From assembly GCA_965661285.1 (NCBI GenBank), contig CBFIDD010000001.1:372852-436851 (forward strand): 64,000 nt of DNA, given 5' to 3'. The notes below the pieces were generated by a model. It saw only the letters and a list, made by a program, of their open reading frames with translations. It did not search any database and had not been told where the DNA came from. The position numbers and the translations under genes were made by a program. Positions 39,207 to 40,229 of the stretch are shown here, in pieces. How positions within the stretch are numbered: the first letter of the stretch is position 1; every line of letters starts with the position of its first letter. Source of the DNA: Poseidonia sp. GTDB lineage: Archaea > Thermoplasmatota > Poseidoniia > Poseidoniales > Poseidoniaceae.

Positions 39207-40229
39207 ATGTTTACTGGCACCGTTGAAGCACGAAGCCACGAGGGTGGTTTGCTGGTGCATTTTGAAGGCTCATCCCCTGCGCTCAACGCCATCATGATTC
39301 GAGCCGACGACGGCACCTACATCGGAAAGGTCGACGGGGTCATCGGAAGCACCAACCATCCGCTCGCTCACGTGGCGCACATCGACCGCTCCCTCGACAT
39401 GGACACGCTCATCGGCGTGAGCGTGACCGTCCGGGCAAAACAGAAGCCCAGAGAACAGCGAAACGATCGGCGGACCCGCCGAGATGACGGACGTCATGAC
39501 CGGAGGGGACGAGACGACAACCGGGGTTTCCGAAACGATCGGGACGGCGGACGTCAGCAACGCGGCACGTTCAACGATAACGACTGGACGTGCCCGGAGT
39601 GCAAGAACTCCAATTTCGCTTTCAGAAACGTCTGCAACCGGTGCGAAGCACCACGACCGGGTGGCGGTGGTGGACGACGGGACGACCGAAGAGGACGAGA
39701 CAACAACCGAGGATTCCGAAACGACAGAGGCGGAAGACGGGACGACCGAGGATTCCGAAACGACAGAGGCGGACGACGGGACAACCGTCAAGGACGGGAC
39801 AACAACCGAGGATTCCGAAACGATCGGAACGGCGGGAGCCAACAACGCGGTACGTACAACGACAACGACTGGACATGCGCCGAGTGCAAGAACTCCAATT
39901 TCGCCTTCAGAAAGGTCTGCAACCGATGCGAAGCACCGCGACCGGGTGGCGGCGGTGGCGGTGGAGGAGGACAATACCGAAACGACCGTCGCACAGGAAG
40001 CTACGGAAATCAGCGGAGAGACCACCGCGGAGGAAGCTACGGAAATCAGCGGAGAGATGGCGAACGAGGACGCCAACAGGGCGGTCGAGGCGGCGGTGGT
40101 CGCTTCCAAAATCGCCGTTCATCCGATGTTCAACCCCGCAGAGCCAAAGGAAAGCGTTCTGGTCATGCTCACAATCAACCTCCCCGAGACTTCAGATCTC
40201 CGCGGAAATTTGAACGCAGAGACGACTGA
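39207..40229 (+). CDS. Gar1/Naf1-like domain fused to RG/RD-rich low-complexity region with two RanBP2-type zinc fingers
   Basis: N-terminal GTV...GLLV...PALN...[18 protein letters not shown] resembles the archaeal Gar1 core; two copies of [26 protein letters not shown]. Confidence 0.82.
   Translation: [340 protein letters not shown]
39520..40060 (+). repeat. Intragenic duplications and short tandem repeats
   Basis: Zinc-finger block duplicated with a 285-nt offset (39582, 39867); RGFRNDR x4; GSYGNQRRD x2. Confidence 0.9.

Follow-up and report, generated by a model that had tools for sequence, protein, structure and literature searches.

A probable Gar1 of Poseidoniales archaea with a disordered RG-rich tail and two RanBP2-type zinc fingers

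In its canonical form, Gar1 governs the loading of substrate and the release of product at Cbf5 without contacting RNA. The solved archaeal proteins (P. furiosus and M. jannaschii; 2hvy, 2ey4, 3mqk and 2rfk) are 74-104 aa long. Eukaryotic GAR1 (yeast, 3u28; snR30 snoRNP, 9g25; human telomerase, 7trc) joins the core to disordered, RNA-interacting Gly/Arg-rich (GAR) regions that lie both before and after it and contain no zinc fingers. NAF1 (2v3m, 2eqn), a eukaryotic protein that coexists with a separate GAR1, holds a Gar1-type barrel inside a longer, partly disordered protein. In the passages on Gar1 of two reviews, it is the sole H/ACA protein without RNA contact, and Gly/Arg-rich extensions are seen as eukaryotic (PMC7991803, PMC8096250), in line with an earlier sequence-only reading of the DNA analysed here, which took archaeal Gar1 to be without the GAR regions of eukaryotic GAR1.

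We analysed a window of 64,000 nucleotides from Poseidonia sp. and found a gene, gar1-ZnF, that combines features of these systems. Its ORF is as the sequence-only reading had described it, with a barrel, an R/G/D/N-rich tail and two RanBP2-type fingers. The protein has the beta-barrel fold, profile homology and partner genes of archaeal Gar1 in common, and its docking on Cbf5 is alike in a predicted model. However, it adds a 262-aa disordered RG-rich tail with two fingers, and its core has diverged enough to escape Pfam and NCBIfam. With eukaryotic GAR1 it shares a core plus a Gly/Arg-rich, putatively RNA-interacting disordered extension, but in gar1-ZnF the core begins with residue 1, and the extension, D/N-rich and finger-bearing, lies only on its C-terminal side. 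The arrangement of a Gar1-type barrel within a longer, partly disordered protein also resembles NAF1, which is nevertheless a poorer fold match than Gar1, and only a single gene is present here. We found no paper on a zinc-finger, RG-tailed archaeal Gar1 in the literature.

Table 1. Features of gar1-ZnF and its neighbours, in window coordinates.
Feature	Position	Strand	Evidence or remarks
gar1-ZnF gene	39207..40229	+	340-aa ORF including stop codon, ATG start
Gar1 core, aa 1-80, six-stranded beta-barrel (predicted)	39207..39446	+	AF2, Foldseek, PDB profile search, hhalign
Disordered R/G/D/N-rich tail with both fingers	39447..40226	+	pI 11.5, net +35; linkers pLDDT <50
RanBP2-type zinc finger 1, aa 126-151	39582..39659	+	PF00641 40 bits; pLDDT ~91
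39-bp tandem repeats encoding 13-residue units between the fingers	39682..39787	+	Tandem Repeats Finder
RanBP2-type zinc finger 2, aa 221-246	39867..39944	+	PF00641 35.2 bits; pLDDT ~93
Conserved C-terminal motif of 30 residues, aa 311-340	40137..40226	+	Relatives' ORFs
Upstream 650-aa protein gene	37205..39157	+	No Pfam family; hydrophobic stretches at both ends, by eye
Downstream TPR and transmembrane protein gene	40238..41275	+	Pfam TPR_19/TPR_2; start 9 nt past gar1 stop

Direct family scans are weak on the core. On aa 1-78, PF04410 reaches 16.4 bits, and 15.2 bits when the genome is searched, both below its cut-off of 29.3, which none of the Poseidoniales genomes searched passes, and the NCBIfam Gar1 equivalogs match at E 0.05-0.12. 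We therefore based the assignment on profile, fold and profile-profile comparisons. Searched against the PDB, a profile of 32 N-domains (A1) has Gar1 proteins as all of its top six matches, and P. furiosus Gar1 (2hvy_B) aligns to it at full length with E 0.0029. Using hhalign, we matched the same profile to 14 canonical, above-cut-off Gar1 proteins of the same phylum over 72 columns, with a probability of 96.2% (E 2.8e-9). AF2 predicts aa 1-80 to be an all-beta domain (pLDDT 91.8), and Foldseek places archaeal Gar1 structures first (2ey4_D/C and 2hvy_B; TMq 0.74-0.78, TMt 0.82-0.86, rmsd 1.7-2.0 Å), with TMq 0.78, TMt 0.84 and rmsd 1.8 Å for 2ey4_D; NAF1 and eukaryotic GAR1 rank after them. 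The profile, Foldseek and hhalign evidence thus agrees with the earlier claim that the N-domain is Gar1, and indicates that the core is a diverged yet genuine member of the family. The order's own profile scores 88-125 bits on in-order proteins and falls to 16-23 bits for sister orders, and H/ACA function may have been altered or lost in the diverged core.

The below-threshold family scores, together with NAF1 2v3m among the fold matches (TMq 0.63-0.66), could suggest a Naf1-like or inactive paralogue, a barrel of the Gar1/Naf1 fold that no longer works as Gar1 in organisms that do without it. We consider this very improbable, as archaeal Gar1 structures fit better (TM 0.78-0.86, against 0.55-0.66 for NAF1), the hhalign probability to canonical archaeal Gar1 is high, and the gene is single-copy and near-universal: the N-domain is present in 60 of 61 Poseidoniales genomes, and the families f1 and f3 have a Gar1 gene in 102 of 105.

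Genes for Cbf5, Nop10 and the L7Ae family are all found in the genome (93% complete), whose sole PF04410-like match is the gar1-ZnF core; gar1-ZnF is its only Gar1 candidate. Membership of the H/ACA RNP had been proposed from the sequence, and the modelled Cbf5 interface favours it. The predicted core/Cbf5 complex reaches an ipSAE of 0.80 in 3/3 runs, against 0.00 for the best control, but complexes of this kind have already been solved, and the score may reflect structures that the predictor has learned, Gar1 with Cbf5 being a textbook pair. Among 80 solved complexes 58 come up to this ipSAE mark, as do 2 of 110 mismatched pairs. Contact agreement between the runs is 100%, with a partner pLDDT of 89. 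The predicted Cbf5-binding face of the core comprises residues 8-12, 16, 23-26, 44-53 and 55, and the modelled contacts include the invariant or near-invariant S10, H11, E12, P24, L26, V45, G47 and H55.

The two fingers both match W-x-C-x2-C-x3-N-x6-C-x2-C, with 2 differences between them over 26 positions. PF00641 matches the whole protein with 59.6 bits in two stretches (E 1.6e-16; cut-off 27), and in a whole-genome search with this family these two fingers are the only matches above the cut-off. In the PDB, the best match of finger 1 is the FUS finger (6g99, E 4.7e-8); the next solved relatives are ZRANB2 finger 2 (2k1p/3g9y, 5e-5) and ZNF265 (7.6e-5), and all three outrank Nup153, RNF31 and TAB3. 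The Cys spacing is identical to that of the FUS and ZRANB2 fingers (6g99; 3g9y/2k1p, 1n0z). Residues of ZRANB2 finger 2 described in part of one source as contacting GGU are D68, N76, W79, R81, R82 and N86 (PMC11789483). Gar1-ZnF is identical to ZRANB2 at the positions of D68, N76, N78 and N86, has an Arg at R82 and an aromatic residue at W79, and keeps five of the six side-chain contact positions, W79 as Phe. A wider finger pattern picks out 74 fingers, borne by 38 of the 50 ORFs of relatives. In these fingers the D68, N76 and N86 equivalents are identical in 74/74, the stacking aromatic at W79 is F in 70 and Y in 4, and the R82 position is R in 70 and K in 4. The only variable contact is the R81 position (F 45, R 19, other 10), which holds a Phe in each finger of gar1-ZnF. 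Since this Phe resembles the W of the FUS finger and is unlike ZRANB2, GGU specificity is not assured. Pfam, the PDB ranking and the contact residues nevertheless place the fingers where the sequence-only reading had put them, in the ssRNA-binding subclass of RanBP2-type fingers, closest to FUS and ZRANB2.

The likeness to FUS extends to the RGG-finger-RGG arrangement of its C-terminal half, and to this extent the description of gar1-ZnF as FET-like in architecture holds. It does not hold for the rest of the protein: the N-terminus is a predicted Gar1 barrel, Pfam finds no RRM, there is no SYGQ-type prion-like domain (only two GSYG near the C-terminus) and no PY-NLS can be recognised. The host of the fingers is here a probable archaeal Gar1. 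The two finger modules have 51/60 aa and 152/180 nt in common, and their codons differ by 14 synonymous and 9 non-synonymous changes, indicating that the modules are old and under selection. Finger number ranges from 0 to 4 in relatives, some of whose fingers have CNRTGC or CNRDHC as second knuckle. Seven complete finger-less forms exist within the order, so the fingers appear to be dispensable for core function. In the sample of the phylum, the sole above-cut-off finger outside the order (G204) lies in an unrelated Pro/Ala-rich frame of 465 aa and lacks the D/NF contact residues; we rejected it as a lead on the origin of the fingers. The ESM Atlas leads on this question (score 0.76), which are small finger-bearing proteins from green algae and haptophytes, were not used as evidence, and when we looked among longer proteins for a comparable RGG-finger stretch, none of the 63 candidates scored.

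The tail (aa 79-340) contains 64 R, 47 G, 29 D and 28 N among its 262 residues, and the protein ranks second of 11,612 genome ORFs in RG richness. RGFRNDR (x4) and GSYG (x2) occur as often as had been counted earlier, and RGG, noted earlier as several, occurs x4. In the full-length model, confidence is high (pLDDT about 90 or more) for the core and both fingers alone, with every linker below 50. The tandem repeats between the fingers have a period of 39 and 2.2-2.5 copies with 82-93% matches. The C-terminal motif is a new observation. Of the 22 complete ORFs known from the genus, 21 carry it; R311 and G315 are invariant, and shorter relatives of it occur in three genera of the other family. 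The C-terminal 55 aa have no PDB match at E<=10, and a PY-NLS-like or other known motif at the C-terminus is therefore unsupported.

A long, disordered, polycationic and multivalent tail with a variable number of fingers is what one would expect of a condensate scaffold, in which the RG/RD tail and the fingers drive RNA-dependent phase separation into a nucleolus-like body with the H/ACA RNP and pre-rRNA. RGG domains participate in phase separation according to the part of one review that treats them (PMC8096250), and in this genome DUF655, Csl4-RRM and a DEAD-box helicase also carry RG-rich stretches. However, fibrillarin, also a nucleolar protein that classically bears a GAR region, has no GAR extension in this genome (246-aa frame against a 227-position family model), and the tail has few aromatic 'stickers' and many Asp residues, with hydrophobic, aromatic or Cys residues making up 7% of the linkers. 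The small-genome genera, moreover, have a tail reduced to ~70 aa. We regard a scaffold of this kind as quite unlikely, and nucleolus-like condensates in Poseidoniales as speculation, although the idea is compatible with the RNA-capturing role proposed below.

The sequence-only reading had itself raised the possibility of an assembly artefact, in this case a mis-assembled or mis-called low-complexity repeat joined in silico to a small gene. Short-read contigs are indeed broken by the repeat region, so that 39.5-39.8 kb is covered by overlapping contig pieces with no single spanning contig, and in several relatives the tail is interrupted by N runs or contig ends. Nevertheless, the same architecture is shared by 60 of 61 related genomes and is seen in well over a hundred independent ones, single-contig genomes included, and overlapping contigs from four runs of three studies tile the ORF. 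One strain has a 9-nt insertion that stays in frame, and the finger residues are under clear purifying selection. An artefact thus has next to no chance of being the explanation, and recurrence in relatives together with the overlapping contigs refutes it in practice. M1, F2 and G4 at the N-terminus are invariant in 32 relatives. We rejected an antisense 279-aa ORF and +2/+3-frame ORFs over the tail as coding, because conservation, fingers included, is seen in the reported frame only; they arise as a side effect of the purine-rich, low-complexity sequence of the coding strand, whose AT skew reaches 0.48.

The tail is present in relatives order-wide, where the earlier reading had asked for the fusion to be surveyed. 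The 39 complete ORFs in the order are all 149-442 aa long. In a class-level sample, in-order matches lie in frames of 126-531 aa, except for two cut by contig ends, whereas sister-order matches lie in frames of 79-89 aa. Long-tailed Gar1 is thus found throughout Poseidoniales, and bare Gar1 in the sister orders. Because the sister orders are bare and the core is no closer to eukaryotic Gar1 (18.2 bits, against 20.7 for archaeal Gar1 with the A1 profile), the tail appears to have arisen independently within archaea. The view that archaeal Gar1 is bare agrees with the reviews but needs one amendment: in another family of the phylum, the Gar1 proteins of three genomes bear basic tails of 47-70 aa, without fingers. 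Outside the order, the seemingly long frames of Gar1 in G213, G277 and G085 are due to an upstream open frame and have no tails.

Taken together, we propose that gar1-ZnF is probably the H/ACA Gar1 of Poseidoniales (Marine Group II), which has gained its own ssRNA-capturing module. Judging from homology and modelling, the 80-aa barrel would dock on the Cbf5 catalytic domain beside the thumb-loop region, as in the solved archaeal complexes, and the order has added a C-terminal polycationic, disordered R/G/D/N tail in which folded FUS/ZRANB2-type fingers are embedded. Each finger may bind a short, GGU-like triplet of G-rich single-stranded RNA, and non-specific electrostatic affinity for RNA may come from the RG-rich linkers. 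Gar1 would thereby become a flexible, multivalent RNA-capturing arm that keeps substrates such as (pre-)rRNA, or perhaps guide RNA, close to the Cbf5 active site, and that could alter substrate recruitment, RNA folding or turnover. We infer the binding of zinc and RNA, the RNA targets and the catalytic effect of the tail. In yeast, the RGG domains of Gar1 alter catalysis and turnover, which the authors credit to substrate-RNA contact, as summarised in part of one review (PMC8096250).

The neighbours of the gene, newly described here, are conserved. The 650-aa protein gene lies upstream in 47 of 49 relatives' loci and the TPR gene downstream in 37 of 49, the remaining 12 all stopping at a contig edge. 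This location, in a block with two membrane or secreted proteins and away from translation genes, would suit a moonlighting RNA-binding protein (a general RNA chaperone, ribosome-assembly factor or mRNA binder) whose work lies largely apart from pseudouridylation, with the barrel mainly as anchor or relic, as would the strong divergence of the core from canonical Gar1 and the presence of a conserved C-terminal motif. A lineage-wide habit of placing ssRNA-binding modules on RNA enzymes likewise suggests a general RNA-handling adaptation: Csl4, the exosome cap, carries RRMs with RGG linkers, and this order-wide fusion, also new here, is found in 39 of 41 genomes. We find moonlighting unlikely, however, since the modelled Cbf5-interface residues are the most conserved of the domain and the Cbf5/Nop10/L7Ae set of the genome has no alternative Gar1.

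The tailed Gar1 and the Csl4-RRM fusion point to lineage-specific remodelling of RNA handling. A more far-reaching and doubtful reading is a Poseidoniales-wide rebuild of the RNA-facing side of RNA-processing machines, with eukaryote-typical RNA-binding modules on Gar1, Csl4, the DEAD-box helicase and DUF655. Their multivalent tails would gather the maturation of rRNA and the decay of RNA into RNA-protein assemblies or condensates, in an archaeon outside the Asgard group; the finger module might then have come from a marine eukaryote. On the preferred reading of an H/ACA Gar1 with an RNA-capturing arm, abundant, uncultured ocean archaea would have independently gained a Gar1 extension together with ssRNA fingers of the kind described elsewhere in FUS, ZRANB2 and RBM5/10. 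The long-tailed Gar1 would offer a natural experiment on the function of GAR-type tails in the H/ACA RNP, as well as a compact prokaryotic system for RNA recognition by RGG-finger proteins.

Public records label these genes mostly as 'hypothetical' or 'zinc finger protein', which makes Poseidoniales appear to be without gar1; our results correct this annotation.

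The N-terminal domain (aa 1-80) of the gar1-ZnF protein draws weak support for a Gar1 call from direct family scans, scoring 16.4 bits against Pfam PF04410 (cut-off 29.3) and E 0.05-0.12 against the NCBIfam Gar1 equivalogs. Its identity as Gar1, which a sequence-only reading had proposed, nevertheless rests on four independent lines of evidence. Using a profile of the N-domains of 32 relatives (A1), we found that the six best matches in the PDB are all Gar1, with P. furiosus Gar1 aligned end to end. The AlphaFold model of the domain (pLDDT 91.8) superposes best on archaeal Gar1 (2ey4 and 2hvy chains; TM 0.74-0.86, rmsd 1.7-2.0 A) and less well on NAF1 and eukaryotic GAR1. 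When A1 is compared profile to profile with canonical Gar1, represented by 14 above-threshold genes of other orders in this phylum, the two align over 72 columns with a probability of 96.2% and E 2.8e-9. Finally, a search for another gar1, suggested along with that reading, returned only gar1-ZnF as a Gar1-like sequence in this genome (93% complete), which also encodes Cbf5, Nop10 and two L7Ae-family proteins.

We also modelled the N-domain in complex with the genome's Cbf5, both partners being supplied as alignments. The complex scores 0.80 in 3/3 runs (best control 0.00), a mark reached by 58/80 solved complexes and 2/110 mismatched pairs; since Gar1-Cbf5 structures have already been solved, this pass may reflect memory. 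All runs have 100% of their contacts in common, with a partner pLDDT of 89. The modelled contacts fall on the most conserved N-domain residues (S10, H11, E12, P24, L26, V45, G47 and H55) and, in the catalytic domain of Cbf5, on residues 116-137 and 171-179. The model supports N-domain-Cbf5 binding, as likeness to known complexes rather than as binding itself.

Features of the gar1-ZnF locus and of other RG-rich RNA proteins in the same genome (G000; C1, C4 and C5 are its contigs)
Feature	Position	Strand	Description
gar1-ZnF ORF	window 39207-40229	+	340 aa
RanBP2-type finger 1	aa 126-151	+	RanBP2 pattern, Pfam PF00641
RanBP2-type finger 2	aa 221-246	+	RanBP2 pattern, Pfam PF00641
Conserved C-terminal motif	window 40137-40226, aa 311-340	+	30 residues
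Upstream gene	window 37205-39157	+	650-aa protein, no known family; in 47/49 relatives' loci
Downstream gene	window 40238-41275	+	TPR/transmembrane protein, start 9 nt past gar1 stop
Csl4-RRM fusion L066	G000:C1:232631-234187 (outside window)	+	518 aa
DUF655/HhH protein L065	G000:C5:123043-123894	-	N-terminal G/Q/R-rich stretch
DEAD-box helicase L067	G000:C4:36814-38298	-	RG-rich C-terminal tail

The tail that follows (aa 79-340) contains 64 Arg, 47 Gly, 29 Asp and 28 Asn among its 262 residues, with a net charge of +35 and a pI of 11.5. The protein holds four RGFRNDR, four RGG and two GSYG units, and 39-bp tandem repeats encode part of the tail; coordinates, composition and motif counts all match the R/G/D/N-rich ORF as first described. 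In a simple R+G window scan of the genome's ORFs of at least 60 aa, the protein ranks second of 11,612. The full-length AlphaFold model, built with 25 relatives, resembles beads on a string, with pLDDT values of roughly 90 and above for the core (1-80) and the two fingers and below 50 for each linker. An assembly artefact, named in the sequence-only reading as a way in which the tail could prove spurious, is ruled out by overlapping contigs from four public runs in three studies that tile the ORF (the best-covering run may be the source sample itself) and by one strain whose poly-Gly run carries an insertion of 9 nt that stays in frame.

Both fingers are of the RanBP2 type and nearest to the ssRNA-binding fingers of FUS and ZRANB2, in agreement with the first description. 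Pfam PF00641 matches the protein with 59.6 bits (cut-off 27; E 1.6e-16), and these two are the only above-threshold PF00641 fingers in the whole genome. The nearest PDB entry to finger 1 is the zinc finger of FUS in complex with RNA (6g99, E 4.7e-8), followed by ZRANB2 finger 2 (2k1p/3g9y) and ZNF265/ZRANB2 finger 1, while fingers that bind Ran or ubiquitin (Nup153, RNF31, TAB3) rank below. About 2 kb from cbf5 on contig C2, an acidic 445-aa protein (L068:3238-4575, minus strand) terminates in a small zinc ribbon (CxxC...CxxC), whose weak PF00641 match (18.1 bits) is unrelated to the Gar1 fingers.

As described for ZRANB2 finger 2 bound to GGU, Asp68 and Arg81 contact G1, the Val77 backbone and Arg82 contact G2, Asn76 and Asn86 contact U3, and Trp79 stacks between the guanines (PMC11789483). 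We tallied the equivalent positions in 74 fingers from 38/50 relatives' ORFs, in the register of the finger 1 PDB alignment. The equivalents of D68, N76, N78 and N86 are identical in 74/74 fingers, the stacking position is Phe in 70 and Tyr in 4, and R82 is Arg in 70 and Lys in 4. The sole variable contact is R81 (Phe in 45, Arg in 19, other residues in 10). Where proteins of the genus have several fingers, the first one is often of the Arg-Arg type, as is ZRANB2 finger 1 in the PDB alignment, and later fingers are of the Phe/Trp-Arg type found in FUS, to which both fingers of the gar1-ZnF protein belong. The finger-module duplication is old and kept by selection, because the two modules have 51/60 residues but only 152/180 nucleotides in common and differ at 14 codons synonymously and at 9 non-synonymously.

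The N-domain is present in 60/61 genomes of the order Poseidoniales (genus 35/36, family f2 2/2, family f3 22/22). Of the 50 ORFs that we extracted from the order, 11 run off the end of a contig; the 39 complete ORFs measure 149-442 aa and therefore each carry a basic tail of at least about 70 aa, so the tail is a feature of the relatives as well. Seven complete ORFs, from f2 and the genera g5, g10 and g6, contain no finger, and the remaining ones contain one to three, with up to four matches per frame in other genomes. In a core tree inferred by maximum likelihood from 83 columns, and therefore weak, finger-less f3 genera are nested among fingered ones, and the well-supported branches imply at least two changes. 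This pattern suggests a finger older than the split between the two big families, with later loss in some small-genome genera. The Gar1 tail of a g6 genome (L064, G042) holds a degenerate W-x-C-x2-C ... C-x2-C element below the Pfam call, which may be a decaying finger. A database search returned 138 family records at E<=0.001 from 172 candidates. Among the matches listed, the best 120 of the 138, source names point to Candidatus Poseidoniales, Poseidonia and Poseidoniaceae, and the usual labels are 'hypothetical protein' and 'zinc finger (Ran-binding) protein', with one JGI entry named Gar1.

Outside the order, the order's own profile gives 16-23-bit matches in frames of 79-89 aa in sister orders of the class; the extra length of a single 172-aa frame is an upstream open frame. 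PF04410 exceeds its cut-off in 43/301 genomes of the phylum, none of the 43 belonging to the order; frame lengths are 68-160 aa in nearly all of them, and longer frames in G213 and G277 likewise proved on inspection to include upstream open frames. Three genomes of another family, f20 (L081 in G223, L083 in G208, L084 in G266), have finger-less basic R/G/K/P-rich C-terminal Gar1 tails of 47-70 aa, which shows that short basic tails also occur beyond Poseidoniales. The long RG tail with fingers is unique to the order among the genomes searched. PF00641 exceeds its cut-off in 56/301 genomes, 55 of them in the order. The sole other finger (L085, G204:C2:1500-4400; another family of the phylum) is RanBP2/NZF-like (32.5 bits) and lies at the end of an unrelated protein, a frame of 465 aa that is rich in Pro and Ala and hydrophobic in segments near its N-terminus; this finger lacks the RNA-contact residues.

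The C-terminal motif occurs in 21/22 complete ORFs of the genus, the exception containing an N run, and a shorter GHxH[SK]KR...P..PF version is found in three genera of the other family. It matches no solved structure in the PDB. Genomes across the order keep the arrangement 650-aa protein, gar1, TPR/transmembrane gene; 37/49 relatives' loci include the downstream gene, and the remaining 12 end at a contig edge.

Archaeal Gar1 is described as binding Cbf5 only, without guide RNA contact, and as controlling the thumb loop and product release, while the extra RGG domains of eukaryotic Gar1 are termed eukaryote-specific and their removal alters catalysis, suggesting substrate RNA contact (PMC8096250). 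Both GAR regions are described as absent from archaeal Gar1 (PMC7991803). Given this background, the most economical reading is that the barrel retains its canonical Cbf5-bound role and that the tail would supply a flexible, multivalent ssRNA-binding arm, whose fingers would read G-rich triplets, whose RG linkers would contribute charge-driven affinity, and which would bring (pre-)rRNA or other RNAs to the RNP or keep them there. While domain identities and the conservation of domains and contact residues are direct results, we infer RNA binding by the tail and fingers, its targets and any kinetic effects. The sequence-only reading thus holds in part, for the Gar1 core, RG tail and FUS/ZRANB2-type fingers; its nucleolus-like condensates are compatible with the ssRNA arm as a speculation. 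Fibrillarin of this genome is bare, without a GAR extension; a general 'nucleolar' GAR signature is therefore absent here.

Full-text searches outside subscription journals returned no paper on Gar1 in Poseidoniales or Marine Group II and nothing relevant on an archaeal Gar1 with a RanBP2 zinc finger; among the matches listed for RanBP2-type zinc fingers and archaea, no title or abstract opening concerns Gar1 or Marine Group II. We found no description, in the literature searched, of a Gar1 with an order-wide RG tail carrying FUS/ZRANB2-type fingers, an architecture with putative functions that is of interest to RNA modification and archaeal cell biology.

Other RNA proteins of the genome are also RG-rich. 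In L066, the Csl4 subunit of the exosome cap is fused with two RRMs, RGG linkers and an RG/K-rich tail. Its residues 39-220 cover the full length of A. fulgidus Csl4 (2ba1, E 5.6e-11), and its RRMs are PABP/hnRNP-like, matching PABP with E 2.7e-31. Neither Csl4 nor RRM appears in the literature matches listed for such a fusion in MGII (subscription journals aside). Csl4 and RRM lie in a single frame in 39/41 genomes of the order. The RG-rich stretches on L065 and L067 make these further RNA-handling proteins of the genome with RG-rich low complexity.
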